A stretch of DNA of 64,000 nt. Source: Patescibacteria group bacterium. Lineage in GTDB: Bacteria; Patescibacteriota; Kazan-3B-28; UBA10110. The position numbers and the translations under genes are program-made. A model generated the notes under the pieces. The model was not told where the DNA came from and searched no databases. It saw nothing but the letters and a program-made list of their open reading frames with translations. Shown here piece by piece: positions 9,858 to 59,471 of the stretch. Positions within the stretch are counted from its first letter, which is position 1; the number at the start of each line of letters is the position of its first letter. The DNA lies in NCBI GenBank assembly GCA_041659905.1, contig JBAZXK010000002.1, positions 128,593-192,592 on the forward strand. The letters run 5' to 3'.

Positions 9858-9875
9858 TACTCTTTTAAATTCGTT

Positions 9876-10202
9876 ATGAAGTGCAGTGAATGTTCTCGTC
9901 GCAATCATGATGACAATCGCTTTTGTATCTTTTGCGGCACTGCTCTCGAGTCTAAACTCGCTACGCGAGAGACTCCCCAATCCATCAGTCGTCAAAAGGT
10001 GTTATTGCCACCCCAGGATATTGATGAGCTGATCAGTTATCGAGATACCTTGAGACGTCCGGCCGTTTCGATTTACCCGGCCGTAGTGGCAAGTTTGGCG
10101 ATTATTATAGTGGCAGCCGGAGCCTATTACTGGTTCTGGTACCGAGATGTTTTTGAAGTTATGGCAATTGATTATCAGTCTACTGAACTAATGGATGAGT
10201 GA
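9876..10202 (+). CDS. Zinc-ribbon domain protein with C-terminal transmembrane helix
   Basis: CSECSRRNHDDNRFCIFCGTAL double CxxC ribbon, then a hydrophobic helix. Confidence 0.5.
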   Translation: MKCSECSRRNHDDNRFCIFCGTALESKLATRETPQSISRQKVLLPPQDIDELISYRDTLRRPAVSIYPAVVASLAIIIVAAGAYYWFWYRDVFEVMAIDYQSTELMDE

Positions 10203-21127: not shown

Positions 21128-21246
21128 CTGTTAATTGAGTAAATAATTACGTATCCGTCATTCTGGGGAGCCCCTGGGGCGACTCCAGAATCGTACATAT
21201 TATTTATACGATCCTGGACGATGCCAGGATGACGGCCAAAAGAGTC

Positions 21247-27410: not shown

Positions 27411-28184
27411 ATGGCTAAGACAATCGAAAGATTATTAGGAGAAATCGGGCTGAGCGCCAAGGAACAGGCGGTTTACCGAGCAGTAGTTGAACTGGGTGAT
27501 GCGCCAGTGTCCCCGATCGCCAAAAGAGCTCGCATTAATCGAGCAACAGCTTATAGTATTTTGGATCATTTGATCGGAAAAGGATTAGTTGCTAAATCCG
27601 AGCAGAAGAAAAAACTGCATTATTCGGCTAAGGGTACCGGTGAACTTGAAGAATATCTGATGTCCCAAAAGGCTAACTGGGATGGCATCATCCATACCTT
27701 TCATCATTTAAAACCTGAACTGGAAGCATTGTTAGGCAGCGCGGGAGTAAAGCCGACGGTAAGATTCTTTGAAGGGAAGTTAGGAGTAAAAGAAGTTTTT
27801 TTTGATCAGATTCGCGGTGATCATAAAGAAATCTTAGCCTATGGTTCGGCGGGCAAATTAGAGGAACTAATGGGGAGTGATTATTTAAAGATGTTTACTA
27901 AACAAAAATCTAAAACCAATATCGTTACCAGAGCGATTTTGCCGGACGAACCCATTTCGCGAGAATATGTCAAAAAATATTATCCTGAAAAAGGCAAACA
28001 GCTATTCGATATTAAAGTTGTGTCTCCCGATGAATTCCCGATGGAGATGGAAATGAACATTTATGGTAATAAAGTTTCCATGATCTCGCTTAACCCTGCC
28101 GAGCCGGTTGCGGTTATTATCGAAAGCCCTGCTCTAGTTCGCAATCAACGTATCATCTTTAATCTTCTTTGGAAGCGATTATAA
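27411..28184 (+). CDS. TrmB-family HTH transcriptional regulator (paralog 1)
   Basis: N-terminal winged HTH (LSAKEQAVYRAVVELGDAPVSPIAKRARINRATAYSILDHLIGKGLV) plus C-terminal TrmB-like domain; ~60% identical to 30348..31121. Confidence 0.7.
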   Translation: MAKTIERLLGEIGLSAKEQAVYRAVVELGDAPVSPIAKRARINRATAYSILDHLIGKGLVAKSEQKKKLHYSAKGTGELEEYLMSQKANWDGIIHTFHHLKPELEALLGSAGVKPTVRFFEGKLGVKEVFFDQIRGDHKEILAYGSAGKLEELMGSDYLKMFTKQKSKTNIVTRAILPDEPISREYVKKYYPEKGKQLFDIKVVSPDEFPMEMEMNIYGNKVSMISLNPAEPVAVIIESPALVRNQRIIFNLLWKRL

Positions 28185-28707: not shown

Positions 28708-30153
28708 TCATTTGGGCCATTCTCTATTGGAGAACCAGAGTTCTCCTCGATCTCCATTGATGTGCCGTATAGCCGAGAAGAATAAGTCGCTCACCTCTTG
28801 AAAGGTGAAATTTCTTGAGTTCAACTGAGGGATGTTTATGGAATACCTACTCCAGTTTTGCCATCCCCCATGTAGTTCAATACCGCTTTCCGGCCTGATG
28901 CGGTATTCTCCCCCGCCTATTGATTCCATTATTTCGTGGAACCTTCTTGTCCCTGGGAGCAACGAAAAGCAATAAACCACATGGAAATCTGAGAGTCCCT
29001 CATCTCGTAAGTTCTTTGCGAACTTAATTTGATTCTCCATTCCCAGGATGGTTTGCTCAGGAAAACCCATAATATGAGAGGTGTACACCCAGAGTCCTCT
29101 CTTTTTAGCTGCCCCCAGGATGCTTCTATAGTGAGACATCAGCTGCTCGGGAATTTGGTCGGTTGTCTTTCCTCGCAGATTAATTGGGATAAACAATGTC
29201 CGGCAGTTAGTATCTGCCATGTAGTCGATAAGTTCGGGTGTCAGGTTCTCTAACTCAAGTCCACCATTGTTCTCCCAAGACAGACCATGCTTTTTAAACA
29301 GCCGCATTACTTTTATTGCCCAGTCCCCTCCTCGGGAAAAGTTGTCGTCCTGAACAATGACATGGCTGTAACCATTTTCTCTCAACAGCCTAAGGTGATT
29401 TGAAATCCAGGAAAGGCTGTGTTTCCTAAATTTTTGTCCCCACATCCAAGGAGTGCAACAAAATCCGCATTTATTTGGACATCCTCTACTCAAGATAACA
29501 TCCAAATATTTTTCTCCGTGTGCAGACCCTGCGTAAGTTGGGCTTGGAGTAAGAGGGATCTGCTGAATCAGTTCAAGATCCAAAGACCCCAAGCAGTCCA
29601 AATCTTCTACAAGATCTTCTGGCGGATTAATGCAAAATTTGTTGTTTCTATCCAGATAGGCCACGCTTCCTGACTGCTGGATTATAGAAGGGTTGTCCAG
29701 GTTTGCAACGATATTCCCCATTACAACCTCTCCTTCACCAGTTACTACATAATCAATCAGGCTATCCCTTAAGGTTTTCTCAGGAAGCGCTGAAGCATGA
29801 GCTCCACCACAAACCAGAGGTATATTGGGGAAATACTGCTTCAATAGTTTTGCAGTTGTGAGAAATCCCGTGTACCCCACAGTGGCCAGTAAGGTTATGC
29901 CAATGACATCTGGCTTGAAATCAGATATCCTTTGGGTAATTTCCTTGTCTGGCAATCCATACTCCAACGTTTCCGAGGTAGTCTTTCGGAGGGTGCCCCA
30001 GCCCTCTAGGGCTGAATCAATTACTTGGACTTCGTGATGCCCTAAGTTTTTTAAAGCTGATCCGAGGTACCAAGTCCCCAGATTCAGCGCAGACTTTTTC
30101 AGATCTGCTCTGTTAGTGATCAATGGGGGGATTACCAGAATTACTCGTTTCAT
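28708..30153 (-). CDS. B12-binding domain / radical SAM domain protein
   Basis: N-terminal cobalamin-binding Rossmann-like region (VCGGAHASALPE...VTGEGEVVMGNIV) and canonical CxxxCxxC (RGCPNKCGFCCTP). Confidence 0.8.
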   Translation of the reverse strand: MKRVILVIPPLITNRADLKKSALNLGTWYLGSALKNLGHHEVQVIDSALEGWGTLRKTTSETLEYGLPDKEITQRISDFKPDVIGITLLATVGYTGFLTTAKLLKQYFPNIPLVCGGAHASALPEKTLRDSLIDYVVTGEGEVVMGNIVANLDNPSIIQQSGSVAYLDRNNKFCINPPEDLVEDLDCLGSLDLELIQQIPLTPSPTYAGSAHGEKYLDVILSRGCPNKCGFCCTPWMWGQKFRKHSLSWISNHLRLLRENGYSHVIVQDDNFSRGGDWAIKVMRLFKKHGLSWENNGGLELENLTPELIDYMADTNCRTLFIPINLRGKTTDQIPEQLMSHYRSILGAAKKRGLWVYTSHIMGFPEQTILGMENQIKFAKNLRDEGLSDFHVVYCFSLLPGTRRFHEIMESIGGGEYRIRPESGIELHGGWQNWSRYSINIPQLNSRNFTFQEVSDLFFSAIRHINGDRGELWFSNREWPK

Positions 30154-30347
30154 GGTTACTCTCCTTTTTCAAGCTACATTGATTTTGCGCTCTGATGGCT
30201 CAATACTATGATAAACTAATAAATTTGTCAATTATCATCCACAGTATAAATAAATAAAATAGCTGGATTATATCAGTATTTACAAAAGTAATCAGATATG
30301 TTAATATATTTGTGGGTGCAGTTCCACAAAATATAACTTTTTTTAAG

Positions 30348-31121
30348 ATGGCTAAAACTGTTGAACAATTACTCCAGGAGATCGGGTTGGGCCAGAAAGA
30401 GCAGGCAGTTTATTCGGCGGTGGTGAGTTTGGGCAATGCGGCGGTTTCCCCTATCGCCCAGAAGGCCCAGATCAATCGCTCGACCGCTTACGATATCCTA
30501 GAATCCTTAACCCACAAGGGTTTAGTGTCGCGTTCGGAAGAGAAGAAGAAGATTCACTATTTTGCCACTGGGATTAACGAACTAGAAGAATATATTCTGG
30601 CACAGGAAACCAATTGGCGGACCGTGTCAGATAGCTTTAAGGGGCTTAAGACAGAACTCTCGGCTTTACTGAATAGTTCGGGCACTAAACCGGTGATGCG
30701 ATTCTTTGAAGGCAAAGCCGGAATCAAAGAGGTATGGTTTGACCAAATTCGGGGGGATCATAAAGAAATCCTCTGTTATAGTTCGGCCAGTAAAGTCGAA
30801 CAGGCTTTGGGCGAACAGTATTTAAAAGTTTATGCTAAGCAAAAGATTCGCAGTAAGATTAAAACAAAACTAATTGTCCCTGGTGAAAAAGCGTTGAAGG
30901 ATTATTTCTCCAAGTACTACCAGCATTCCACTAAAGATCTGTTTGCCATCAAAACCGTGCCACCGGATAAGTTCCCTTTCGAGGTGGATATAAACATCTA
31001 TGGCAATAAAATCTCGATGATTTCTTTGAGCAAGCACGAATTAACCGCTGTAATCATTGAGAGTCCTGTTTTAGCCCGCAACCAACGCATGATTTTCGAC
31101 CTCCTGTGGAGTTTACTCTAG
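30348..31121 (+). CDS. TrmB-family HTH transcriptional regulator (paralog 2)
   Basis: MAKTVEQLLQEIGLGQKEQAVYSAVVSLGNAAVSPIAQKAQINRSTAYDILESL...; paralogous to 27411..28184, including a conserved ~25 nt upstream motif (cagatatgYtaWaatatWtttgtKggt at 27360-27386 and 30292-30318). The listed ORF starts 36 nt earlier at 30312. Confidence 0.7.
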   Translation: MAKTVEQLLQEIGLGQKEQAVYSAVVSLGNAAVSPIAQKAQINRSTAYDILESLTHKGLVSRSEEKKKIHYFATGINELEEYILAQETNWRTVSDSFKGLKTELSALLNSSGTKPVMRFFEGKAGIKEVWFDQIRGDHKEILCYSSASKVEQALGEQYLKVYAKQKIRSKIKTKLIVPGEKALKDYFSKYYQHSTKDLFAIKTVPPDKFPFEVDINIYGNKISMISLSKHELTAVIIESPVLARNQRMIFDLLWSLL

Positions 31122-31165: not shown

Positions 31166-31909
31166 ATGTCTGGACACTCAAAATGGGCTACAATCAAACG
31201 GAAGAAAGGCGCGCTAGACCAGAAGCGCGGGGCTTTGTTTACCAAATTGGTGAAAATCGTGGAAGTGGCGGCCAGAGGCGGGGCGGACCCGGCGATGAAT
31301 TTTAAATTGAAATTGGCGGTGCAAAAAGCTAAATCGGCCAATGTCCCTCTGGCTACGATTGAGAAGTCCATCAAAAAAGGGAGCGGACAAGACAAAGAAG
31401 CGAGCCGTCTAGAAGAAGCAACTTACGAAGGATTAGCTCCCGGAAATGTGGCGGTAGTTATTCAAGCCCTAACTGACAATAAAAATCGGACTGTGGCGGA
31501 TTTGCGCAATATTTTTACTAAGGCTGGCGGGAATTTTGGCTCCCCGGTGTCTTGGCAGTTTGACCATCGCGGAGTGTTGGAAATCAGCAAATCAGGCAAT
31601 GTTGAGGAGCTCGAGTTAGCTGTGATTGATGCGGGGGCATTGGATTTTTCAGATGCGGGAGATGTGGTGGAGGTATATACCGAGCCGAAAGCATTGGACC
31701 AAGTGAAAAACAAGTTGGAGTCCGCCGGATTTAAAATAACTTCCAGTGCTTTGGGGCTGGTGCCGAAAAATAAAACTGTAATTACTGACTCAAATATGGC
31801 TCGCCGGGTGTTGAATTTTTTGGATGCCTTGGATGATTATGATGATGTAACGGAAGTGGCCAGCACTCTGGATGTTCCGGATGAGATTATGGCAAAACTC
31901 GAAGATTAA
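31166..31909 (+). CDS. yebC: YebC/PmpR-family transcriptional regulatory protein
   Basis: MSGHSKWATIKRKKGALDQKRGALFTKL... canonical YebC start; the listed ORF begins 60 nt upstream at a non-homologous Met. Confidence 0.85.
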   Translation: MSGHSKWATIKRKKGALDQKRGALFTKLVKIVEVAARGGADPAMNFKLKLAVQKAKSANVPLATIEKSIKKGSGQDKEASRLEEATYEGLAPGNVAVVIQALTDNKNRTVADLRNIFTKAGGNFGSPVSWQFDHRGVLEISKSGNVEELELAVIDAGALDFSDAGDVVEVYTEPKALDQVKNKLESAGFKITSSALGLVPKNKTVITDSNMARRVLNFLDALDDYDDVTEVASTLDVPDEIMAKLED

Positions 31910-31934
31910 TTCCCCTCCTGCCGGAGGAGGGGTT

Positions 31935-32018
31935 GGGGGAGGTGGGAGTATATTCCCCGAGCGGAGTCGAGCCTGCCTGCCGGTAGGCAGGGGGCTACCT
32001 TTGATTTTGTAAAATCAA
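31935..32018. repeat. 83-84 nt GC-rich palindromic repeat, copy 1 (second copy 57869-57951)
   Basis: ggggaggtgggagtatattccccgagcggagtcgagcctgcctgccggtaggcagggggctacctttgatttt gtaaaatcaat is identical in both copies apart from a 1 nt indel; it contains the palindromes gcctgcctgccggtaggcagg and ttgattttgtaaaatcaa. Confidence 0.85.
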
Positions 32019-32034
32019 TAAAACTTTTTTCTTA

Positions 32035-32282
32035 TTACCTTTCTAGAAAGGTAACACCAAAGTCCCGGGCAGTCGCCCTCGCTCTGCAGTAAATCATAAA
32101 ATCGCCTTCCTGCTCTCGCCCTAACAGACAACGGGCTACGCAACAGCGATTTTCTGTCTGCAGTACGCTCGGGCTCCAATGCCCGGTTGACGGAGAAAGA
32201 CAAAGAAATATAGTGATTTTGCTATTTGCTATCTGAATTTGCTCAATGGGGTTGAAAGACAAAGTCGTCCTCCTCCAATGGC
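32035..32282 (+). ncRNA. Candidate structured RNA / cis-regulatory element, copy 1 of 3 (unclassified family)
   Basis: Alignable with 35824-36000 and 57964-58185. It has a 5-prime hairpin (ttacctttc-taga-gaaaggtaa here; ttactttcc-cga-ggaaagtaa in the others, with compensatory CC/GG vs CT/AG changes), a conserved aaagtcYYSGGCAGTCG box, a covarying internal hairpin, and conserved ctcgRRctccaatgSCYgg plus cctcctccaaKGSc boxes. ORFs on either strand over it are not conserved between copies. Confidence 0.45.
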
Positions 32283-32388
32283 TTAGAGGAAGGAGAACCA
32301 CAGAAGTCAGGGATAGGAAGGGATTATTATTGACCAGGAGCTATTTTTTGGTATATTTAGATCACATTGACAATAAGGACGGTGAACC

Positions 32389-33189
32389 ATGATGGCCTAT
32401 ATCCCCCCGAAAGCTGATGAACTAGGCCATGGAGCCAATGGTTTATCAGACGAGGAAGATTATTTGGATCAACAAGCGAAAGTAGCGGAGCGCGTTTACA
32501 CTTACTTAGAAAAATTGCATCTTACTTATGAAGAAGAATTCGAAGGAATTATTACTGGAGAACTATTTAAGCGCATTGAGCAAGAGTGTGGAGTAGATGT
32601 CAAACAATTCGGTAAATATTTTGGAATTCTACGCAAGAATGAAGCTCCCATGTGCAACCTATTTTGCCCCGGGGTTATATTGGGATTGGTAGCAGATGCC
32701 CCTCAGCATAGACACGGCCGAGGTGACAACAATGAACTACTAGATACCCAACAGAAACGTGATAAGTACAGGCGCACCAGTTTAAAGCAGCATATAGATG
32801 AATGGCTACTGCTCAAACATATTTATGATCAGATTAATCCGGATAAACAGGACGAGAATACTGGTCGATCTATTTTGGCCGACACAAAAAATTTGATTAA
32901 TCAGATGCATGATTTGATTAACCCGATCATTGAACAAATCATCCACGACCCCTTAGTTATTCGAGAAATTCCAGAGTATCTACTGGAAAAGATAGGCGAA
33001 TTGGAAATGCGTGGTATGGCCAATTTGCGCAAATATGGATTGTTACCAATAGTGGTGCTCTATTATGAGATAGGCGTTACAGGTACGATAGGTAAACCTG
33101 GCAATAGAGTGGATTGGTTTAAAGCGGGTAAACCTACTCCGAAAGAATGGTTTGAAAGATGGGGGTTGACTCCACCAGAAGAAGCCTAG
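32389..33189 (+). CDS. Hypothetical protein (lineage-specific)
   Basis: 266 aa ORF directly downstream of structured element copy 1, followed by a strong terminator; it interrupts the usual yebC-ruvC adjacency. Confidence 0.55.
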   Translation: MMAYIPPKADELGHGANGLSDEEDYLDQQAKVAERVYTYLEKLHLTYEEEFEGIITGELFKRIEQECGVDVKQFGKYFGILRKNEAPMCNLFCPGVILGLVADAPQHRHGRGDNNELLDTQQKRDKYRRTSLKQHIDEWLLLKHIYDQINPDKQDENTGRSILADTKNLINQMHDLINPIIEQIIHDPLVIREIPEYLLEKIGELEMRGMANLRKYGLLPIVVLYYEIGVTGTIGKPGNRVDWFKAGKPTPKEWFERWGLTPPEEA

Positions 33190-33200
33190 TAGTTAGTATT

Positions 33201-33229
33201 CCCACGTTCTAAAAAGCGTGGGTTTTTTA
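33201..33229 (+). terminator. Rho-independent terminator
   Basis: cccacg-ttctaaaaag-cgtggg followed by TTTTTT. Confidence 0.75.
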
Positions 33230-34802: not shown

Positions 34803-35786
34803 ATGAAGACTAAATATTGGTGGCTAATTAGTGGCGTGGTGGCCGGCATCCTGATCTTGGGGGGCGGTTATTATGTTTGGTTGGCCCCAGCTGGTTCTAG
34901 CCAGCAACCTAAGCAGTTTGTGGTGCAGTCTGGCGAGGGCATTGGCATCATTGCCGAACACTTGCAGAAAGAGAATTTGATTAAATCTGCCTGGGGTTTT
35001 AAATTATATCTCAAACTAACCGGGCAGATCATTGTGCAGCCCGGCACTTATGAGTTGTCCCCCGCTCAAAGTTTGCCCAAAATAGCTAATTTGATTGCTA
35101 GCGGCTCGACTTCTAATGTAACCCTGACTATTCCGGAAGGATTTACTTTAGAGCAGATTGCCGAAGAAGTTGCCCAAAAGAATATTGCCACTAAAGAAGA
35201 GTTCTTAAAAATTGCCAATGATTTTCCGCCAGATTATGATTTTCTGAAAGCGCGGCCGGCTGGGAAATCTTTGGAAGGATTTTTGTTTCCCGATACCTAC
35301 AAGCTAATCAAAGGCGATCCCACTTTAGCAATCCGGCGGATGCTGGATAATTTTTCGACTAAATATCATTCCGAGATCCAGCCGGATTTGGGCGACCAGG
35401 ATTTGTATAAAATATTGATCATAGCCTCATTAGTTGAACGCGAAGCCCAAAAAACCGAAGACCGCCCGATGATTGCCGGAGTGATTTATAATCGGCTGAA
35501 GATCGGGATGAAATTAGATATCGATGCCACGGTGCGTTTCATTATTAATAATTGGAAGGATCCCCTGACACGAGCCGATCTCACGGTCGATTCGCTCTAC
35601 AATACCCGCCAACATGCGGGGTTGCCTCCGGGGCCGATCTGCAATCCTGGTCTGGCAGCGATCGAAGCGGCGTTGCATCCCGCCGAGCACAAATATTATT
35701 ACTATCTGACTGATCCGGAAGGGGTAACCCATTACGCTAAAACTTTGGCGGAACATAATCAAAACAAAGTCGAATATTTATTATAG
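34803..35786 (+). CDS. mltG: Endolytic murein transglycosylase MltG (YceG family)
   Basis: N-terminal TM anchor, YceG-like domain (LTIPEGFTLEQIAE; PPGPICNPG). Confidence 0.8.
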   Translation: MKTKYWWLISGVVAGILILGGGYYVWLAPAGSSQQPKQFVVQSGEGIGIIAEHLQKENLIKSAWGFKLYLKLTGQIIVQPGTYELSPAQSLPKIANLIASGSTSNVTLTIPEGFTLEQIAEEVAQKNIATKEEFLKIANDFPPDYDFLKARPAGKSLEGFLFPDTYKLIKGDPTLAIRRMLDNFSTKYHSEIQPDLGDQDLYKILIIASLVEREAQKTEDRPMIAGVIYNRLKIGMKLDIDATVRFIINNWKDPLTRADLTVDSLYNTRQHAGLPPGPICNPGLAAIEAALHPAEHKYYYYLTDPEGVTHYAKTLAEHNQNKVEYLL

Positions 35787-35823
35787 TTTTGATACTCTGA
35801 CAGAGTATTGCAGAATTTTTCTT

Positions 35824-36000
35824 GTTACTTTCCCGAGGAAAGTAACCAAAGTCTTCGGGCAGTCGTCCTCACTCGGTATTTAACCAAAAATCTACCTTTC
35901 CGCTCTCGTCGGTGTAACCGACTTTGCAGCGGTAATTTTTGGAATACCTATCGCTCGGACTCCAATGCCCGGATGGGAACAAAAGCCCTCCTCCAATGCC
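35824..36000 (+). ncRNA. Candidate structured RNA / cis-regulatory element, copy 2 of 3
   Basis: ~80% identical to copy 3 over ~175 nt with paired substitutions in helices (gtcggt-gtaa-accgac vs gccggt-atat-accggc; ggta...tacc stems conserved). Loop 1 (aaccaaaaatc) is complementary to loop 2 (atttttgg). Confidence 0.45.
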
Positions 36001-36128
36001 AGGACTGAAGATAAAAACATCTCTCCTTCGATGGTTGGTGATAGAATAGCTTGACGCAAAGAGGATTTTTACATAGTATGCTCATACAGATCAACTGATC
36101 TGATGTTCTTTAAAGGGAGCTAAATCTA

Positions 36129-36425
36129 ATGCCAACCATATTCAGGTATTTGTTGGTAGTAATTTGCTTGGTAGTGATTGTAGCCATCGCACCCCAATAT
36201 CAATCTGTAAGCACAACTGACAGAGAAACCAGTCGTAGTTCTTACTTAGTTAGAGAGGTGTTTGGTCCTAATGACACAGTAACGGTAAGAATATATGATT
36301 TCAGTGATCAGCATGATCCACAGCTGATGACGCTGGTGATGCGAATATACCTCTGTTTAATATTGGGAATAACAGTTATAGGAGCAACCTGCAGTTATAT
36401 CTACCATCATAATGATGCATCCTAA
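36129..36425 (+). CDS. Small hypothetical membrane protein
   Basis: 98 aa, two hydrophobic helices, downstream of structured element copy 2. Confidence 0.4.
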   Translation: MPTIFRYLLVVICLVVIVAIAPQYQSVSTTDRETSRSSYLVREVFGPNDTVTVRIYDFSDQHDPQLMTLVMRIYLCLILGITVIGATCSYIYHHNDAS

Positions 36426-36593
36426 ATCCAAACTAACTGACTGCTCCAACAGAAAACCTCCTGTATAAACTGACCACTTGCTGGTCGGTTTTTTAAATTA
36501 TTCTAACTGGCGCGCTGAATTTAAGCTTAAACTGGGTTAAAGGTAATCTAAGCTCAGTCATGCAAGATAATTAGCTTCCAGAGCCGATAAATC

Positions 36594-36624
36594 TTGACAG
36601 AAAGGTAATTTTTTGCTATATAAT
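36594..36624 (+). promoter_or_regulatory. Sigma70-like promoter (TTGACA-17-TATATA/TATAAT)
   Basis: ttgaca 36594-36599, 17 nt spacer, tatata 36617-36622 (tataat at 36619-36624), directly upstream of 36632 CDS. Confidence 0.5.
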
Positions 36625-36631
36625 AATTACC

Positions 36632-38422
36632 TTGATAACAAGGAATCTATTTCCAAGGAGGAACATCCTGATGCGGATATTCATGGCTATCCTGTTGATT
36701 CTGTCTTTTTTTCAGATCAACTATATTTACACTGGTCAGCCGACAGAAAGAATCAGTCAGCATTCTGAATATGTACCATCGCGGCATGTATTCATAGACA
36801 AGATATGTCAGCTGGATCATTGGATTTGGGAGAGTCCAGGCTTGACTCCGGCGCAATTTGCCGATCTAGCCAAGGAAATCCCTGAACGAAAAGCGTTGAT
36901 TATTCGAATCAAACCGCTTTGTTATCGGCTTGAAGAGCAGGATCAGAGATTAGTTATGATTGCGACTAGTATGATCCGACAAAGGAAGGTTAAACCTTTT
37001 TTTGTTCACTGCTCACCCTCTGGCGATTACGATCCCCGATTTGACACGGTAATGATGCCCAATGGTACCATAGCTGTATTGAATGGGATCGCCCGAGGCC
37101 TTGGTTATGATTCATCGGCCATCGATGAGTCTTATCCGGGACCGAATCTGCAAGGACGAGAACGTGATTTCGTTCTCAACTATCTTAGAAGCGAGATTGA
37201 GAAATCTTGGTCTTCAGGACTTGAACCAGTTGTTTATTGTACGCTCCTGTCTTATAACTCTGAATCGTCATTGGGGTTATTAAAAACTCTCAAAAATGAG
37301 TTCGGGGAAAAAATCAAAACAGGAGTTGGCGGACAATTAGTCCGGGTCATTCCTGAAACTTATCGCAACCTAACATATATCGATCAAGTTGGCGTGGGTG
37401 ATGCAGAAGTTATTCTGCAACCGATGTTGGCTGGTCAAAACTATGCTGAAGGTTGGCTTGATTCTGGTCTAAACTTCTACGCAGAACCTAACTACCATGG
37501 GTATTTAGGTTTGAACAATAGACTGAATGAAAGCTCTCGGTATGCGTTTGGACCATTCACTGGTATACGAAACTTATGCATCGAAAGCGTCAGGGGATGT
37601 TCATGGGCATACTTGACTGGAAAGCCATGCGAAATGTGTGCCCTCCAAGGAGTTTCCAGTCAGCCAGTCTTTAAGCCATTCCAGAACCATTTTGATCTAG
37701 AGAATCAGCTTGCTAGAGAATTTGGGATTAACTGGTTGTTCGATGTGAGTAATCAATTTATTCCAGTTACTGGTAAAAATCAGGCTGATTGGCTGCGAGG
37801 CTATTTGATTGCCAAAAATCAGTATAGCGAGGTTGACATCAATAAGTATGTTTATCTCACTGCAGCATCATTCAGCTCAGAAACCGCTCCTCTTCTACGG
37901 GAAGCAGGGATCAGGATTGCTTACGTGGGGTTTGATGGTTGGGAACGTGGAACGCGGACAGCGTTGCATAAACCAAATATTAATCCCATGAAGGTGCTGC
38001 AACTCTGCCGAGAGAACGATATCTATGTTCGCACATCATTTGTCATTGGAGCCGGTCTGACTGATTCCAATCTAAATAAGCTTCCTAAGCTTGTTGACAA
38101 TATGATGGCGGGTTATGGAGATGTTGTTCTTTCCTGCGGGAGTTTTTTGCAGATCATCATTCCCGGCTCTCCGGCCTGGGCGTTTCTACAGAAAGAAGCT
38201 CTAGAACAAGAATGGGGAGATGTTAACGACATCTATCATTTCTTTATCACAAACGGATTTTTAACTTGGGAGCAAGAAGAGCAACTGACTAAAGCGTATA
38301 TCCAGAGAGTACAAAATCTGGATTATGACAAAGTAGTGGCAGTCAGAAATTACGTCAAAGCGCTAGTAGATTCTGAAACCATCGCCATCACTATCCGTGA
38401 TGGTGGCACATTGTTAAGTTAA
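36632..38422 (+). CDS. B12-binding-domain protein with divergent radical-SAM-like core (non-canonical Cys motif)
   Basis: 596 aa; a GEGE-type cobalamin-binding-like segment (VGVGDAEVILQPMLAG), a Cys cluster CSWAYLTGKPCEMC (Cx9CxxC rather than CxxxCxxC), and a FVIGAGLTD-like segment. Confidence 0.45.
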   Translation: MITRNLFPRRNILMRIFMAILLILSFFQINYIYTGQPTERISQHSEYVPSRHVFIDKICQLDHWIWESPGLTPAQFADLAKEIPERKALIIRIKPLCYRLEEQDQRLVMIATSMIRQRKVKPFFVHCSPSGDYDPRFDTVMMPNGTIAVLNGIARGLGYDSSAIDESYPGPNLQGRERDFVLNYLRSEIEKSWSSGLEPVVYCTLLSYNSESSLGLLKTLKNEFGEKIKTGVGGQLVRVIPETYRNLTYIDQVGVGDAEVILQPMLAGQNYAEGWLDSGLNFYAEPNYHGYLGLNNRLNESSRYAFGPFTGIRNLCIESVRGCSWAYLTGKPCEMCALQGVSSQPVFKPFQNHFDLENQLAREFGINWLFDVSNQFIPVTGKNQADWLRGYLIAKNQYSEVDINKYVYLTAASFSSETAPLLREAGIRIAYVGFDGWERGTRTALHKPNINPMKVLQLCRENDIYVRTSFVIGAGLTDSNLNKLPKLVDNMMAGYGDVVLSCGSFLQIIIPGSPAWAFLQKEALEQEWGDVNDIYHFFITNGFLTWEQEEQLTKAYIQRVQNLDYDKVVAVRNYVKALVDSETIAITIRDGGTLLS

Positions 38423-49404: not shown

Positions 49405-49478
49405 GCGGGTATCGTATAGTGGCAATACCCCAGTTTTCCAAACTGGCGCCGGGGGTCCGATTCCCCCTACCCGCTCCA
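49405..49478 (+). tRNA. tRNA-Gly (anticodon TCC), CCA encoded
   Basis: Manual cloverleaf: acceptor gcgggta/tacccgc, D-stem gtat/atac, anticodon stem ccagt/actgg with loop ttTCCaa, T-arm ggggg-tccgatt-ccccc, CCA. Confidence 0.85.
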
Positions 49479-49639
49479 GCGTCGCGGTGGACTCCGCTTT
49501 ATCGCCTCACTATGCGTAAGGCTCATAAACGCTTTGTCACCACTCCTCTCCAAATTACAAACAGGTCTGCGACCTTCAGTTTGCGATTTGGGTGGGGAAA
49601 GAGATAGCGCACCGGTTTAGGCCAGTTTAATTAAAATTC

Positions 49640-50137
49640 ATGGTTGATCCTAATACTATTCATGATCGGTTAATTAACCTGCTTGATATCAATCAGGTCG
49701 AGTACAAACTCTTTAACCATCCGGCAGCATTGACTTATGAAGATTTAGCTGCAGTCCAGAAATCAACTGGTTTCTTTGGGACCGAGGCCAAATGTATGGT
49801 ATTAAAGGTAAGCGATAAGTTTATCGTCTATATCACATTGCAAGGCAGTCGGGTTAATTTCAACGCCGTGAAGACAGAATTAGGAGGAGCTAAAGTTCGG
49901 CTGGCCACTGCCGAGGAATTAGCCGAATATTTTGGTGCCCAACCCGGTTGTGCTTACCCATTTGCTTTTGACTCCCAATACGACATTTATGTAGATCCTA
50001 AGATATACGAGCAGGAATGGCTCTTATTTAGTCCCGTTTTACCTACCGAGACAATCCAAGCTAAAGGAGAAGATCTAAGGAGAGTATGGGCCTCTCTAGA
50101 TAATCAGGTCTCGGAAGTAATAAATTTCAATCAGTAA
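49640..50137 (+). CDS. YbaK/ProX-like aminoacyl-tRNA deacylase domain protein
   Basis: 165 aa; family-level resemblance to YbaK/prolyl-tRNA-synthetase-associated editing domains. Confidence 0.45.
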   Translation: MVDPNTIHDRLINLLDINQVEYKLFNHPAALTYEDLAAVQKSTGFFGTEAKCMVLKVSDKFIVYITLQGSRVNFNAVKTELGGAKVRLATAEELAEYFGAQPGCAYPFAFDSQYDIYVDPKIYEQEWLLFSPVLPTETIQAKGEDLRRVWASLDNQVSEVINFNQ

Positions 50138-50215
50138 CCATATCAGTCAAAAACTTGGGGATAAGTGATTAGGTTAAATCTGGGGTTTATTACGCCTAGA
50201 GCTGACTTTTAATTA

Positions 50216-50244
50216 TTGACAGTCCCGTTTTTTTATGATATAAT
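50216..50244 (+). promoter_or_regulatory. Consensus sigma70 promoter (TTGACA-17-TATAAT)
   Basis: ttgaca 50216-50221, 17 nt spacer, tataat 50239-50244; upstream of 50289 CDS. Confidence 0.6.
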
Positions 50245-50288
50245 AGTTATTAACAGGCAAGCCAAATAAAAATCAAAAAACAAACCAA

Positions 50289-50651
50289 ATGATGTTTAAT
50301 AAGCTAAAACGAGTTCTGCTTGAGTCGGGCTATCGGGTAATCCTGACGAGCAATGTCTCTCAAAGTCCGAAAAAGGGCTTTGCCCGGGGCATCAAGGGTT
50401 ATATCGTACCGGATGACCTGACGATTTACATCAATAAGAATATTGGAGTAAATGATCGGGTGATTACTTTGGTACACGAATTATTGCACGAGATTTACCC
50501 AGCTTGGACAGAAGGCAAAGTTAATCAAACCTCTAAAAGAATTTTTCAAAAGCTAACTGTTCCCCAACTGGGTTTCCTCCAGTTTTTTATCATGGTGCCA
50601 ACCGAAATTAGAGCAATGCTCCGTTCCAACAACCTGTCTTCTGTCTGCTAA
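50289..50651 (+). CDS. Hypothetical protein
   Basis: 120 aa ORF downstream of a consensus promoter. Confidence 0.45.
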   Translation: MMFNKLKRVLLESGYRVILTSNVSQSPKKGFARGIKGYIVPDDLTIYINKNIGVNDRVITLVHELLHEIYPAWTEGKVNQTSKRIFQKLTVPQLGFLQFFIMVPTEIRAMLRSNNLSSVC

Positions 50652-50883
50652 AACAATATACTCAAAATGGTGGATGAGCTCTGGCGCCGTGGACAGAGCT
50701 TTTTTATTTTTTCCAATCGTCATTCCGGTAAGTCCGCTTTGCGGACGCATCCAGAATCGTATAATAATAAATCTATACGATCCTGGACGAAGCCAGCCTG
50801 CCTGCCGGTAGGCAGGGACGACAATATAAGGAAAACATTGTCGCTTAAGGTATATTGATATTAGTTGAAAAATTGATTATTGT

Positions 50884-50958
50884 GCCCCTGTAGTTCAATG
50901 GACAGAACAAGAGACTTCTAATCTCTCGATCGAGGTTCGATCCCTCGCGGGGGCGCCA
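50884..50958 (+). tRNA. tRNA-Arg (anticodon TCT), CCA encoded
   Basis: Acceptor gcccctg/cgggggc, D-arm gttc-aatggaca-gaac, anticodon loop ctTCTaa, T-arm cgagg-ttcgatc-cctcg. Confidence 0.85.
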
Positions 50959-51036
50959 TCCCAGTCCCGTGTTGTATAACACAGGACGGGATGAGTCCTG
51001 CATCGCATGGTGCAGGGCCAGGCGTGAATTAACATG

Positions 51037-51111
51037 GTGGGCGTAGCTCAACGGCAGAGCATCTGTTTGTGGAACAGATGGTTATGGGTTCGAATCCCAT
51101 CGTCCACCCCA
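51037..51111 (+). tRNA. tRNA-His (anticodon GTG) with encoded G-1 and CCA
   Basis: G-1 + gtgggcg acceptor pairing with cgtccac, anticodon loop ttGTGga, T-arm atggg-ttcgaat-cccat; a hairpin spacer separates it from tRNA-Arg. Confidence 0.85.
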
Positions 51112-51121
51112 CAAAAATTTT

Positions 51122-51613
51122 ATGGATATACGGATTAGACTAATTGAAGAAGCTGAATTAGAGTCTGTCAGCCAAGTCTTTACCGAAGCATTTAATAATG
51201 CCGGCGTCGGAGAGAACTGGAGTGTAGAGCGGGCTATCAAGTATTTAAGATATTTATATCAACATCAGCCTGATCTGTTTTTTATTGCGGAAGCCGAAGG
51301 AGAAATTGTGGGGGGTGTAGCCGGAGTGATCAGGACATGGGGAACCGGTAATTATTTGGGTGAGTGGGAATTATTTGTGAAGCCGGAATATCAGAAACAA
51401 GGGATAGCTGCCAAACTGCTAACTAATATTGTGCGCAGTGCTATTGATAACCACGCCATAACCATGTTTAGTGGATTAGCTTTTAGCGGCAAGGCATTTC
51501 CGATGGAGTGGTACAAACAGATAGGTTTTCATCCCTCCGGCTGGGTGCATATCGAAGCTGATGCGAAAGAGCTGTTAAGTAATCTTATTGCTGATCATGG
51601 CCAAAATCAATAA
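51122..51613 (+). CDS. GNAT-family N-acetyltransferase
   Basis: 163 aa; acetyl-CoA binding region (QKQGIAAKLLTNIV) typical of GNAT. Confidence 0.65.
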   Translation: MDIRIRLIEEAELESVSQVFTEAFNNAGVGENWSVERAIKYLRYLYQHQPDLFFIAEAEGEIVGGVAGVIRTWGTGNYLGEWELFVKPEYQKQGIAAKLLTNIVRSAIDNHAITMFSGLAFSGKAFPMEWYKQIGFHPSGWVHIEADAKELLSNLIADHGQNQ

Positions 51614-52001
51614 ATCTAAATTCAGCGAAGCGGTGCATAAATTGGTTAGAGCTATTCCGCAAGGCAAGGTGATGACTTACGGACAGGTGGCGGCGTGTTT
51701 GGGGTACCCCCGAGCGGCCCAGTATGTCGGCTGGGTGCTACATTGGTCGGATTTTAATGATGTCCCCTACCAGCGGGTGGTGAATCGGTTTGGCGGGCTG
51801 GCTTCTGGCTATACACGCGGCGGACAGCTGGCCCACAAATTTGATTTAGAAGAAGAAGAAGGGATTAAAGTGCGCGATGATTTTACGATTGATTTGGAAA
51901 AGTACCTGTGGCAGCCGCCGCAGAAGCTGATTCCCAGACTAGATAATGTTACACTATTGGAGGAGCTGCCTTTCTCTGCTAGATTAGTTGGGAAACAGTA
52001 A
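51600..52001 (+). CDS. Alkyltransferase-like (ATL) protein / MGMT-family DNA-binding domain without active-site Cys
   Basis: YGQVAACLGYPRAAQYVGWVL resembles the Ada/Ogt C-terminal domain, but PRAAQ replaces PCHRV; probable start MAKINKSKF at 51600 (the listed ORF begins at 51588). Confidence 0.6.
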   Translation, partial: AKINKSKFSEAVHKLVRAIPQGKVMTYGQVAACLGYPRAAQYVGWVLHWSDFNDVPYQRVVNRFGGLASGYTRGGQLAHKFDLEEEEGIKVRDDFTIDLEKYLWQPPQKLIPRLDNVTLLEELPFSARLVGKQ

Positions 52002-52071
52002 CTTTTAGTAATTGGTCAATTGAGAATTGGGAATGGGTTAAATTAGGTAATTACGCCGTTAGGCGTTATAT

Positions 52072-52146
52072 GCCCTCGTAGTTCAATGGACAGAACGTAG
52101 GATTCCGGATCCTAAGGTGTAGGTTCGATTCCTACCGAGGGTACCA
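52072..52146 (+). tRNA. tRNA-Arg (anticodon CCG), CCA encoded
   Basis: Acceptor gccctcg/cgagggt (terminal G-U), D-arm gttc-aatggaca-gaac, anticodon loop ttCCGga, T-arm gtagg-ttcgatt-cctac. Confidence 0.8.
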
Positions 52147-52213
52147 AGTTTGATAAGAGTTCACCTGTGAGCGAAACCATAAAAGGATTGCCCAAGTTTT
52201 TAAAGTCTCTGTT

Positions 52214-53290: not shown

Positions 53291-53425
53291 ACCGACAGAT
53301 GGCAGCATAGATTAACAGAAAAAATTCTGTTGGGTTATTATTAGCTGGCTACAGTGGACAACAGGTGGTCAAAAAGCTACAATTCACAAGTAGAAAGACA
53401 TTAGCATCAACTTCTAGAAGTATCT

Positions 53426-53500
53426 GGGTTGTTAGCTCAATGGTAGAGCAGCTGCCTCTTAAGCAGTTGGTTACAGGTTCGAATCCTGTACAGCCCACCA
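53426..53500 (+). tRNA. tRNA-Lys (anticodon CTT), CCA encoded
   Basis: Acceptor gggttgt/acagccc, D-arm gctc-aatggta-gagc, anticodon loop ctCTTaa, T-arm acagg-ttcgaat-cctgt. Confidence 0.85.
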
Positions 53501-53501
53501 C

Positions 53502-53576
53502 GGCGCCATCGTCTAGAGGTTAGGACGCCAGGTTTTCATCCTGGTAACCGGGGTTCGATTCCCCGTGGCGCTACCA
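53502..53576 (+). tRNA. tRNA-Glu (anticodon TTC), CCA encoded
   Basis: Acceptor ggcgcca/tggcgct, D-arm gtct-agaggtta-ggac (Glu-typical), anticodon loop ttTTCat, T-arm cgggg-ttcgatt-ccccg. Confidence 0.85.
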
Positions 53577-57530: not shown

Positions 57531-57788
57531 ATGGCTCGACTAAAAGAGTTCAAAATTTATTCGACTCCAACTTGCGGTTACTGCCATATGTTGAAGGATT
57601 GGCTGACTGAAAAAAAGATCCCTTTTATCAATATTGATGTAGCAGCTGATCCAACTAAAGGAGTGGAAATGATTCAGAAAACCGGGCAAATGGGGGTGCC
57701 GGTGAGTATGATTAGTTTTGAAGATGGCAAAGAAGAGATTGTTTTAGGATTTGATCAAGAGAGGATTGCGAAGATCCTTGGTTTGTAA
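57531..57788 (+). CDS. Glutaredoxin-like protein (NrdH/thioredoxin fold)
   Basis: 85 aa, CGYC redox motif near the N-terminus. Confidence 0.75.
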   Translation: MARLKEFKIYSTPTCGYCHMLKDWLTEKKIPFINIDVAADPTKGVEMIQKTGQMGVPVSMISFEDGKEEIVLGFDQERIAKILGL

Positions 57789-57868
57789 ATTATTCCCCTC
57801 CTGCTCCTCGAGTCTGAGCCTCGGAGTCGAAGACCGGAGCCTGCCTGCCGGTAGGCAGGGAGGGGTGA

Positions 57869-57951
57869 GGGGAGGTGGGAGTATATTCCCCGAGCGGAGT
57901 CGAGCCTGCCTGCCGGTAGGCAGGGGGCTACCTTTGATTTGTAAAATCAAT
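57869..57951. repeat. 83 nt GC-rich palindromic repeat, copy 2 (identical to 31935-32018); preceded by a partial extra copy of its core at 57820-57865
   Basis: Same sequence as copy 1, including the gcctgcctgccggtaggcagg and ttgatttgtaaaatcaa palindromes. Confidence 0.85.
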
Positions 57952-57963
57952 CAACCATTTTCT

Positions 57964-58185
57964 GTTACTTTCCCGAGGAAAGTAACCAAAGTCTTCTCGC
58001 AGTCGCTCTGGCTTGGTATTTAGCTAAAAATTACCTGGCTGTTCTCGCCGGTATATACCGGCTCCACGCACTGGTAATTTTTGGAATACCTAACACTCGA
58101 GCTCCAATGGCTGGAATGTAAAATCAAGACATCCCTCCTCCAAGGGCCGGTTAGATGAAAAGACGCTCAAACTCCAATGGCCACG
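57964..58185 (+). ncRNA. Candidate structured RNA / cis-regulatory element, copy 3 of 3
   Basis: 5-prime hairpin gttactttcc-cga-ggaaagtaac identical to copy 2; conserved boxes as in copies 1-2; fused downstream of the 83 nt repeat exactly as in copy 1. Confidence 0.45.
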
Positions 58186-58337
58186 AAATACAACGGTCGT
58201 TGTATTTCGTGGCCTAGTATACCATCCGTCATTCTGGGGAGCTCATGGGGCGACTCCAGAATCTTTCCTGGTTTTTTTATTGGTTTTAGATGTAGAATAT
58301 AAATATTCATTATATTTATTAACAAATAGGTATTATC

Positions 58338-59471
58338 ATGGGGAAGAAACTAAAGAAAATAAAAACAAACAAGTCCTTGAAGTCTCTCTTCAGCAACAAG
58401 CCACTCCTCTTTATAGTGGCTATTGTGGTATTGGTTGTAATCTTCTCCAATTCAAGCGTAAGAGCTTTTCTTAGAATGCCTAGTCAGGCAGCCGAAATTA
58501 CTCCAGGTACCTCACCATCTACATCAACTTCCTGCATATTCTATGCATCTTCTTTAGGCAACGATCAGAATAATGGCAGTGCTCCCCAAGATCAATACGC
58601 AGTCAGAACTATTAAAAAAGCAATTCAGTTGTCGAAGGCTAATTGTCCAGTCTCGGCGACAATTAAGCTTGTCGGCAGTCAGTATAATGTTTCAGATCTT
58701 GATATAAATACAGCAAATCCAATTACAGTTAATGGAGAGACAAAAAACATCACTATCACTTCGAGTGGCGCTAATAAAACTGAGGTTAAGTATGTTAGTC
58801 CAAATAATGATGATAGTACGGTAACATTTTCTAATGAGGTTAATTTTAATCCGAATGGCACGATCACTATTACAAACATCATATTTAATAATGTTGGGAT
58901 TCGTACTTTAACACGCTCGTATAGTACATATGTCACAGGGAATATTCTTACAAATCAGACTAACCATGATCCAAATGACCAGGCACGATTAGTGGTGGGA
59001 TCTTTCCTTAATGCTGATGCGGGTATTATCAAAATATATAACAATAAGTTTATGTTTGATGAGACTACCTCAGGAAATATAAACGAGGGCGTTATTATAG
59101 ATAATCTATCATATGCCACCCTGTTGGATGTATCTAATAATACCTTTAATTACTTCTCATATCCAAACCAATATAGTGATTCTAATACTGAAGAAACTAA
59201 ATTTATAGGTATCAGATTACATCAAAACAACAGTCAGGCATCAATCGCAAATAATAATTTTGTGACCCAAGGAGTATCTGTTGTAGGAAAAAGCATCATA
59301 TCTGCCAATATCCACAATTTTGGCCTAGTTTCGGATAGGTCTGTTATCAAGACAACAATAGAAAAAAACAATTTCTCAAAGTTCAATGGGATTGATGTTA
59401 GCGTTATTTCTCCACCTGTACAAGGGAGCGAATCCCAGAACATACTCATTCATAATAATATAGGTATATAA
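58338..59471 (+). CDS. Secreted/anchored protein with parallel beta-helix-like repeats (hypothetical)
   Basis: N-terminal signal/TM (LLFIVAIVVLVVIFSNSSVRA); N/T/I-rich repetitive body suggestive of a right-handed beta-helix (pectate-lyase-like) fold. Confidence 0.55.
   Translation: MGKKLKKIKTNKSLKSLFSNKPLLFIVAIVVLVVIFSNSSVRAFLRMPSQAAEITPGTSPSTSTSCIFYASSLGNDQNNGSAPQDQYAVRTIKKAIQLSKANCPVSATIKLVGSQYNVSDLDINTANPITVNGETKNITITSSGANKTEVKYVSPNNDDSTVTFSNEVNFNPNGTITITNIIFNNVGIRTLTRSYSTYVTGNILTNQTNHDPNDQARLVVGSFLNADAGIIKIYNNKFMFDETTSGNINEGVIIDNLSYATLLDVSNNTFNYFSYPNQYSDSNTEETKFIGIRLHQNNSQASIANNNFVTQGVSVVGKSIISANIHNFGLVSDRSVIKTTIEKNNFSKFNGIDVSVISPPVQGSESQNILIHNNIGI

Follow-up and report, generated by a model that had tools for sequence, protein, structure and literature searches.

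Repetitive extragenic palindromes (REPs), which are simple and imperfect, measure ~35 nt, are found in either orientation, carry a conserved 5' tetranucleotide and are linked to REP-associated tyrosine transposases (RAYTs). In enterobacteria, mosaics of REPs (bacterial interspersed mosaic elements, BIMEs) are transcribed with the upstream gene, and are thought to stabilise the upstream mRNA or to attenuate read-through. The pneumococcal BOX element is built as boxA-boxB(n)-boxC, and the Correia and enterobacterial repetitive intergenic consensus (ERIC) elements have terminal inverted repeats and target-site duplications. Riboswitches lie between the promoter and the regulated open reading frame (ORF), and carry an expression platform. 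The element described here is new and previously unclassified, and in kind it stands between the orphan structured non-coding RNA motifs and the mosaic intergenic repeats. We use the name E for this multi-copy, sense-oriented structured RNA module, three copies of which (copies 1-3, or w1-w3) are found in a 64,000-nt stretch of a contig from a Patescibacteria group bacterium (JBAZXK010000002.1, positions 128,593 to 192,592; hereafter, the window).

By comparing these copies with their relatives, we show that E is a multi-copy structured element at the predicted 3' ends of transcription units, where it follows the stop codon of a housekeeping gene or a 5S rRNA gene and precedes the next promoter-like site. 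The explanation that we favour, and which we consider about evenly balanced between right and wrong, is that E is a co-transcribed module at the 3' boundary of an RNA, where it would provide termination, processing or protection.

The copies in the window all lie on the + strand and align over ~150 nt, with a looser 3' extension (Table 1). An initial annotation of the window had reported three alignable copies, and a covariance model run over the 64 kb with its filters off recovers exactly these; there are no weaker copies, everything else scoring 21 bits or less. A repeat finder returns two three-copy families, D1 and D4, which span the 5' and 3' parts of the copies. The boxes named in that annotation (AAAGTC..GCAGTCG, CTCGRRCTCCAATGSC and CCTCCTCCAAKGSC) are present, with all six exact matches of CTCCAATGSC in the 64 kb falling within the copies, and both the 5' hairpin in which the two strands have changed together and the internal (terminal) hairpin with full compensatory replacement can be seen. 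A further proposal, that two stems with complementary A/U-rich loops form a kissing or pseudoknot interaction, has to be revised: these are really the two strands of one long interrupted helix, GGTATT..CCAAAAAT..TACC with GGTA ATTTTTGG AATACC (as RNA, GGUAUU-CCAAAAAU-UACC with GGUA-AUUUUUGG-AAUACC).

Folded singly, the copies form a 5' hairpin followed by one long interrupted hairpin. The 5' hairpin, P1, has 10 bp (GUUACUUUCC/GGAAAGUAAC) and is joined by the linker CCAAAGUC to P2 (UUCGGGCA/UGCCCGGA). Above P2, an asymmetric loop of GUC opposite UCCAA leads to P3 (GYYC/GRRC), and above P3, a 6x8 loop with CRCUC on both strands leads to a helix of ~20 bp; here, midway along the rod, an A:U run is invariant. 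The upper rod consists of a CUUUCY loop, a short U.G-rich helix, a UCUCG / CUUCAC loop and a variable terminal hairpin. In total, the rod is ~110 nt long with five to six helices, and is closed by P2 and P3, in a core of ~150 nt. Its single-stranded loops (GUC opposite UCCAA, UCRCUC, CUUUCY, UCUCG and CUUCAC) are near-invariant. One to four tandem ACRCUC-RRR-CUCCAAKGSC boxes follow on the 3' side of the core.

Covariation was measured by pairing fraction, shuffles and slid partners. In a MAFFT alignment of 30 sequences, which is not fitted to any structure, 85.7% of 1448 cells contain standard pairs and 23 of the 49 pairs have changes on both sides. None of 500 shuffles reaches the covariation score of E, and in a control where the 3' partners were slid by 1-3 columns, pairing drops to 33-55%. 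A model-guided alignment of 33 sequences, which leans towards the structure, gives 89.3% pairing and both-side changes in 29 of 48 pairs. Compensatory pairs are found in all helices except the short U.G-rich one; those in P2 come from copies detected by the model only, in which CCAGCCC pairs with GGGCUGG. With compensatory changes above background and conserved unpaired nucleotides, E is, on the comparative evidence, a structured RNA under selection. U.G is the commonest pair at three positions, and the alignment contains 67 G.U cells versus 43 A.C cells. The U.G pairs and the G.U excess, together with the conserved bulges and asymmetric loops, favour an RNA of the + strand, and the same U.G pairs, bulges and loops disfavour a DNA cruciform or an artefact of palindrome correction.

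The base of the rod has a possible alternative pairing, where the 3' strand of P3 can take part in a local hairpin, GRGC-UCCAAU-GCYC. This is accompanied by one clean covarying pair (226-273), which is A-U in 14 sequences and G-C in 13. The mirror-image local hairpin on the 5' side (GGGC-AGUC-GCCC) was rejected as an alternative fold, since it shows no covariation. A resemblance to the hairpin ribozyme (A|GUC in the P2/P3 loop and GUAUUUAAC in some rods) was also rejected, because the subtypes do not all share the second motif and E fits no ribozyme model.

Approximately 36 distinct homologues of E are recognised; every one of them comes from a Patescibacteria genome or from a metagenome, of groundwater or other origin. 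A degenerate DNA pattern, applied to one genome per species, gave 36 loci, of which 14 carry E and come from six metagenome-assembled genomes (MAGs) of Patescibacteria/'Saccharibacteria'. The remaining 22 belong to unrelated phyla and are expected chance matches, which the covariance model rejects; none of the 26 pattern hits outside Patescibacteria passes the model. A second pattern, anchored on the 5' part, added ~14 more distinct copies from groundwater and other metagenomes, and the covariance model (R1) brought to light six copies that had escaped the patterns (L032b, L033b, L008b, L068a, L068b and L065; L numbers denote related loci). Two pattern scans of viral contigs found no E, only a single chance match in a phage polymerase gene that the model rejects. 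E is so far restricted, as judged from these matches, to one clade of Patescibacteria (Candidate Phyla Radiation, CPR), which is related to 'Kazan'. The window itself matches metagenome contig ENA ERZ27249449, and the closest relatives of its YebC are 'Patescibacteria group bacterium' proteins, followed by those of 'candidate division Kazan' at 54-64% identity.

The initial annotation had described a non-coding structured element of an unclassified family, and had proposed an Rfam scan and a covariance search of related genomes and metagenomes. Both bear it out. At the gathering score, Rfam 15 (4227 models) finds only six tRNAs in the window and no family at the copies of E; at an E-value of ≤10, the regions around copies 1 and 3 yield only noise (lncRNA, miRNA and snoRNA models). 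In 13 related loci and a copy of the type-2 relative described below, there is no match at the elements, only rRNA and tRNA genes elsewhere. The covariance search supplied more homologues that support the helices, and the covariation strengthens with ~33 of them. Literature searches on structured RNAs and repeats of CPR, Saccharibacteria or Patescibacteria brought up no description of E.

Across the ~36 copies, the constant partner of E is the upstream feature on the same strand. The genes in this position encode YebC, MltG (window, L040 and L068), Grx, RarA, an AstE-like enzyme, Obg, HisRS, FtsZ (three contigs), TypA, FtsK and RuvC. In three independent contigs, the upstream same-strand feature is a 5S rRNA gene, 19, 137 and 416 nt away, and therefore E also marks the end of an rRNA operon. 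Six sequences have -1 to 1 nt between the stop codon and P1, and another five have 8-9 nt. E has the same strand as its upstream feature in 24-25 copies and the opposite strand in 3-4 (L006, L035, L008b and perhaps L048), an excess expected by chance with a probability of ~1e-4 (binomial, calculated by hand from these counts).

The genes downstream of E are unrelated and form no coherent functional set, comprising hypotheticals, ruvB, nrdR, yajQ, comEC, a DedA-like gene and a tRNA. They begin from 47 to >500 nt away, and at five loci (L006, L033, L035, L054 and L059) the downstream ORF is convergent. The sigma-70-like sites between E and the next gene fit the promoter consensus of the lineage. 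This lineage-wide consensus is TTGACTGGRAGC-nn-TTTTTTGATATAAT (window 32330-32357; L046, L065, L068 and L069), and the start codon frequently lies within a few nucleotides of its -10 box, an indication that leaders are short or lacking.

Few canonical hairpin-plus-U terminators follow E, with only ~10 marginal sites in 36 x 350 nt. The housekeeping genes that have E behind them lack canonical terminators, whereas the 266-aa cargo gene behind copy 1 has one. E was rejected as an intrinsic (Rho-independent) terminator, because there is no U tract directly after P1 or the rod, which are followed by CCAAAG.. and GGNU.., respectively. Nor does E have a recognisable promoter of its own: there is no conserved -35/-10 pair in a fixed register, and the copies that abut stop codons have unrelated coding sequence upstream. 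TAGAAT/TAAAT upstream of P1, considered as a promoter, proved to be either the stop codon of the upstream gene or what remains of a duplicated half of P1.

E would thus be transcribed as the 3' trailer of the upstream unit, because the copies that abut stop codons leave no room for a promoter of their own. A putative protein would probably bind the folded platform at its pyrimidine-rich loops and boxes. E would terminate, process or protect the transcript of the upstream unit and shield that transcript from the next unit, while the rod may have a base that alternates between two states (P2/P3 and the local GRGC-UCCAAU-GCYC hairpin). A bolder version, which we consider quite unlikely, is that E serves as a 'punctuation' signal, specific in both sequence and structure, which sets the 3' ends of mRNAs and of the rRNA operon in this CPR clade and replaces canonical terminators. 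It would act via a lineage-specific factor on the UCCAAU/CUC loops or by self-cleavage, and the two-state base would tune read-through.

Several points weigh against a role in 3'-end formation. Firstly, the transcription of E and its RNA ends are predictions from sequence, and the binding protein, the cleavage site and the termination activity are putative. Secondly, weak promoter-like matches lie just upstream of some copies (for example, 35789-35816), and a mosaic of hairpins, including a weak terminator-like one, separates copies 1 and 3 from the upstream gene; because of this mosaic, read-through into these two copies is not guaranteed. Thirdly, the 3-4 copies on the opposite strand are antisense to their neighbours, two of them being degenerate. 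Fourthly, E is missing at the same sites in L066 and L069, and any function is therefore dispensable site by site. Finally, AAAGTC, GCAGTCG and CTCCAATG look invariant in part because the search patterns required them; in the copies found by the model only, these relax to NGTCG and YTCCAAKG.

Table 1. Coordinates of the E copies, their parts and their surroundings (window positions unless a locus is named).
Feature	Coordinates	Strand	Remarks
Copy 1 core	32035..32186	+	covariance model 121 bits; single-sequence fold, z = -1.9
Copy 1 P1 hairpin	32035-32054	+	then linker CACCAAAGTC
Copy 1 P2	32065-32071 with 32180-32186	+	
Copy 1 P3	32075-32078 with 32171-32174	+	
Copy 1 rod, CTGCAG strand	32084-32089 with 32158-32163	+	
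Copy 1 rod, AAAATCGC strand	32098-32105 with 32146-32153	+	
Copy 1 terminal hairpin	GCCC 32118-32121 with GGGC 32133-32136	+	
Orphan 3' half of related type-2 element (GTGATTTTGCTATT..CTGAATTTGCTCAATGGGGTT)	32213..32261	+	5' partner strand absent here
Copy 1 extra 3' box GTCGTCCTCCTCCAATGGC and purine-rich complement GAGGAAGGAG	32264..32296	+	exact CTCCAATGGC at 32273-32282
Copy 2 core	35824..35973	+	covariance model 176.6 bits; fold z = -4.0
Copy 2 P1	35824-35846	+	linker 35847-35853
Copy 2 P2	35854-35861 with 35966-35973	+	
Copy 2 P3	35865-35868 with 35957-35960	+	internal loop GTC / TCCAA
Copy 2 extra 3' box CCCTCCTCCAATGCC	35985..36000	+	exact CTCCAATGCC at 35991-36000
Copy 3 core	57964..58115	+	covariance model 151.5 bits; fold z = -7.2 including 3' hairpin
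Copy 3 P1	57964-57986	+	P2 3' strand ends 58115
Copy 3 two extra boxes	58132..58214	+	CTCCAAGGGC 58138-58147; CTCCAATGGC 58172-58181
Copy 3 3' 16-bp hairpin GGCCACGAAATACAAC/GTTGTATTTCGTGGCC	58179-58214	+	second extra box runs into hairpin
D2 mosaic of GC-rich hairpins	31926..32034	+	between yebC stop codon and copy 1
D2 mosaic, second copy	57859..57963	+	between grx and copy 3
Small hairpin ATACTCTG/CAGAGTAT, then GCAGAATTTTTCTT	35791..35809	+	between mltG stop codon and copy 2
yebC	31166..31909	+	Pfam TACO1/YebC; upstream same-strand gene of copy 1
mltG (YceG)	34803..35786	+	upstream of copy 2; stop codon 37 nt before P1; same arrangement in L040 and L068
Glutaredoxin gene (grx)	57531..57788	+	upstream same-strand gene of copy 3
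266-aa ORF	32389..33189	+	no Pfam match; downstream of copy 1
Canonical hairpin-plus-U terminator	33201-33222	+	directly after 266-aa ORF
98-aa and 596-aa ORFs	36129..38422	+	no Pfam match; between copy 2 and comEC
377-aa ORF	58338..59471	+	no Pfam match; downstream of copy 3
Sigma-70-like promoter site TTGACC-16-TATATT, with TG	32330..32357	+	between copy 1 and 266-aa ORF
Sigma-70-like promoter site TTGACG-17-TAGTAT	36051..36079	+	between copy 2 and 98-aa ORF
E after 5S rRNA	L043:2802-2917		strand (-)
E after 5S rRNA	L028:1576-1691		strand (+)
E after 5S rRNA	L056:2298-2413		strand (-)

Additional modules accompany the copies. The first D2 mosaic is 86% identical to 57859-57967 by the repeat finder, and D2 modules also precede E in L042, L056 and L065. 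The small hairpin in front of copy 2 is conserved, and carries a compensatory change, in L040 and L068 at the orthologous mltG site and in L017 after obg; it overlaps the weak promoter-like match at 35789-35816. Hairpins homologous to the 16-bp one of copy 3, with compensatory changes, follow E in L033 and L010.

The flanking genes named in the initial annotation (yebC, ruvC, ruvA, mltG, comEC, grx and recX) are confirmed, but its 'B12/radical-SAM-like' gene of 596 aa and its 'beta-helix' gene of 377 aa have no Pfam support; the B12/radical-SAM gene is another ORF, at 28708-30153 on the minus strand. Elsewhere in the window, six + strand tRNA genes lie at 49405-53576 (Gly-TCC, Arg-TCT, His-GTG, Arg-CCG, Lys-CTT and Glu-TTC) with small ORFs interspersed. 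A direct repeat of 113 nt with 72% identity occurs at 27750-27862 and 30687-30799; its second copy lies inside a TrmB-like ORF (30312-31121), and related contigs encode two TrmB-family genes nearby. Among the related loci, a LAGLIDADG endonuclease ORF is found beside a 23S rRNA 3'-end fragment (L028:69-545 and 676-921; also L043), and is probably part of an rRNA intron. Such introns have been reported for Patescibacteria.

Orthologous sites differ in whether they contain E. In the compact Kazan relative L069, the gene order is the same, the genes overlap or abut, and E is absent. Closer relatives have yebC-E-ruvC (L065) as well as ruvC-E-263 aa-S51-ruvA and mltG-E-comEC (both L068), and the R1 model finds no type-1 E in L066. 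In the last of these, mltG is followed (8010-10626) by DUF1508, an HTH protein, a DNA methylase and Vsr, which resembles a restriction-modification insert; no comEC was called in this locus. At the mltG site, the window and L040 are collinear, with 73.5% DNA identity through mltG, the small hairpin and E. Homology ends at the 3' end of the E core, beyond which the genes are different, and the downstream gene differs in three genomes while E stays. The 266-aa ORF is absent between yebC and ruvC in L065, L066, L068 and L069, and the 98-aa and 596-aa ORFs are absent in L068, where comEC directly follows E. Given the break in homology and the variable downstream genes, the lineage-specific genes of the window are therefore later additions on the 3' side of a pre-existing E, and not regulatory targets. 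The cargo ORFs after different copies, including the 266-aa ORF of the window and the 263-aa ORF of L068, show no similarity to each other, and a cassette moving as a unit with E was rejected. The earlier idea of a cassette-associated RNA fits in a loose sense only, with lineage-specific genes found just downstream in the window and other cargo or none in relatives (L068 at mltG-E-comEC, L065 at yebC-E-ruvC).

The three orthologous copies at the mltG site are only 62-75% identical to one another, whereas for each of them a copy at some other site in another genome is 85-93% identical: w2 resembles the ftsZ-site copy of L021 (93%), L040 resembles w1 and L042 (85-88%), and L068b resembles L033b (90%). 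The rod subtypes thus predate the species and are passed between sites. A type-2 relative has the architecture of E and a different sequence, with a 5' hairpin, the linker CCAAAGGC, a rod of AAAAUUGCCC/GGGCAAUUUU and the end CUGAAUUUGCUCAAUGGG; its fold z-scores are near -7, and the R1 model does not detect it. Type-2 occupies the yebC site in L068 (10862-11066) and the mltG site in L066 (7576-7760). Only its 3' half is present, behind a type-1 core, at 32213-32261 of the window, where this module has its sole copy, and after the yebC-site element in L065. The module corresponds to the 3' strand of the complete type-2 rod in L068, and both of these arrangements are chimeras.

Further changes are seen in individual copies. 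Small palindromes have been inserted into loops of E in L065, L060 and L054, boxes are duplicated in tandem in L032b, and half-P1 remnants lie upstream in L033b and L042. The spacer between ftsK and yajQ contains a full E in L046 (3447-3608) and a degenerate P1-like remnant with a REP insertion in L065 (244-334), while ftsK and yajQ abut in the Kazan relative. The 3' boundary of E also varies among copies. On this comparative evidence, E behaves as a repeat, with subtypes that would be exchanged by recombination, gene conversion or insertion, and with copies that become chimeric, decorated with palindromes, truncated or lost.

Short REP-like palindromes are a separate feature of this region. 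Two families, GCCTGCCTGCCGGTAGGCAGG and ATCCGTCATTCTGGGGAGC..GCGACTCCAGAATC, occur in the window (31966-31990, 57839-57860 and 57905-57925; 21153-21208 and 58224-58279). Both recur around E in many related loci and also insert into its loops (the three loci named above), and a third family, AACGGCTCA..TGAGCCGTT, is found in related loci.

The repeat-like behaviour of E raises the question of whether it has any host function. It might be a selfish mosaic repeat (resembling BIME, BOX, ERIC or miniature inverted-repeat transposable elements, MITEs), spread by transposition or recombination and accumulating at operon ends, where it does least harm; the hairpin would be kept for propagation or regenerated by DNA-level correction of quasi-palindromes. 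We regard this as unlikely, yet it deserves serious consideration. The multiple copies, the modular build with a variable and, in L032b, tandemly duplicated number of boxes, the shuffling of subtypes among orthologous sites, the chimeric, half and remnant copies, the palindromes in the loops and the variable presence at orthologous sites are all consistent with it, as is the position of many copies near contig ends in one MAG. However, E lacks terminal inverted repeats: P1 is a local hairpin and the arms of the rod are internal, and the 5' end (GTTACTTTCC..) is not repeated in inverted form at the 3' end (..CTCCAATGCCCGG or further boxes), as it would be in a MITE. No transposase, integrase, reverse transcriptase or RAYT (Y1 transposase) is recurrent among the 101 ORFs near E (top 25 families listed), a survey of the neighbourhoods of E. 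Variation is concentrated in the stems and is compensated, whereas the loops, bulges and U.G pairs are conserved; neutral decay or palindrome correction is disfavoured, because either would erase these conserved features. The strong sense-strand bias also speaks against a selfish origin, and so does the retention of E in genomes that otherwise trim spacers to 0-9 nt. In addition, copies in different genomes reach up to 93% identity, compared with 69-80% DNA identity of flanking genes (window versus L040, L068, L065 and L066), although this contrast is indirect, as it involves different genome pairs.

A less probable alternative, which we consider decidedly unlikely, is that E acts in trans, as a small RNA or a protein sponge released from 3' untranslated regions or made from its own promoter. 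Its anti-Shine-Dalgarno-like loops (CUCC, CCUCCUCC and CUUUCC) would titrate an RNA-binding protein or pair with purine-rich ribosome-binding sites. The conserved C/U-rich loops, the repeated CUCCAAKGSC boxes, some of which form small hairpins with a UCCAAU loop, and the several paralogous copies per genome fit such a role. The antisense copies would need a promoter of their own, and weak promoter-like matches do lie upstream of some copies. Against this, there is no promoter in a fixed register, unrelated coding sequence precedes the stop-abutting copies, no canonical terminator defines a 3' end, and in the window the complement of the CUCCAAKGSC box is not in excess outside the copies.

It is highly improbable that E is a DNA-level recombination site, such as an attC-like single-strand hairpin or a landing pad, that marks the entry of cassettes. 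In the window and in L068 (ruvC-E-263 aa-S51), E does have lineage-specific genes directly on its 3' side, between-genome homology breaks at the 3' end of the core, and a tyrosine recombinase gene adjoins E in L006. This recombinase is XerC/D-like and occurs at that one locus only, and integron attC sites or cassette arrays were rejected because the copies are dispersed singly, with no arrays, and lack the GTTRRRY/RYYYAAC pair. Many copies have housekeeping genes on both sides and no cargo; where cargo genes exist, those of different copies are unrelated, each with its own promoter and terminator, and the conserved U.G pairs favour RNA. A guide or scaffold RNA of a mobile element (IS110 bridge RNA, TnpB/IscB omega RNA or retron ncRNA) was likewise rejected, since among the families listed there is no cognate gene beside the ~36 copies, whose neighbours are housekeeping genes.

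The weakest reading, the riboswitch-like or protein-controlled 5' leader of the downstream gene that the initial annotation had proposed, is largely refuted and can barely be upheld: its conserved loops, variable helices and possible two-state rod base, and the position of all three window copies ~110-150 nt before unrelated same-strand ORFs, are outweighed by the upstream location of the constant partner, the promoter-like sites between E and the ORFs, the convergent ORFs at five other loci, the widely varying distances, the copies after 5S rRNA, the exchange of the gene downstream of mltG in three genomes, and the lack of common function or homology among downstream genes, which include ruvB, nrdR, yajQ, comEC and a tRNA and hence are not always accessory or cassette genes. 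As for an expression platform, no hairpin-plus-U terminator follows the core, and the alternative 3' hairpin has one covarying pair and is not tied to any ribosome-binding site.

CPR bacteria, or Patescibacteria, account for a large share of bacterial diversity, most of it uncultured, and their non-coding RNA and the way in which their transcription units are delimited are very poorly understood. E combines a well-supported complex fold with a recombining multi-copy repeat, at the ends of genes and rRNA operons in strongly size-reduced genomes. If E acts in the formation or stability of transcript 3' ends, this lineage would have a solution of its own to a basic problem. A selfish E would be a rare structured repeat that thrives in a minimal genome, possibly marking sites where new genes are gained. 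Either way, its covariance model can be used to annotate these genomes, and E offers a concrete target for metatranscriptomics.

With regard to known systems, E resembles BIME/REP mosaics in being intergenic and multi-copy, in lying at operon 3' ends or between cistrons, and in combining palindromic modules. It differs in its multi-helix fold of ~150 nt, its invariant asymmetric loops, its cross-species covariation and its sense-strand bias. E is not a REP unit, although short REP-like palindromes co-occur around and inside it, and its neighbourhoods have no recurrent RAYT. Like BOX, ERIC and Correia elements, E is modular and dispersed in intergenic regions, with a variable number of internal or 3' units and long RNA hairpins; effects on neighbouring transcripts have been proposed, and either no mobilising enzyme is known or it works in trans. 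E is not known to be related to them in sequence, however, and E occurs in CPR, has a separate 5' hairpin and several conserved internal loops, abuts stop codons or 5S rRNA in the sense orientation and is without terminal inverted repeats. E shares with the c-di-GMP-I (GEMM) leaders many copies per genome near diverse genes, conserved junction or loop nucleotides, covarying helices and possible alternative pairing at the base, but it is located upstream of promoter-like sites, after stop codons or 5S rRNA, and sometimes faces a convergent gene. E also has a likeness to the orphan structured ncRNA motifs (Weinberg et al. 2017, PMC5737381; Rfam), which are likewise defined by covariation and genomic context only and are lineage-restricted; in comparison with these, E stands out by combining a complex fold with the modular, multi-copy and mobile-looking character of a repeat.

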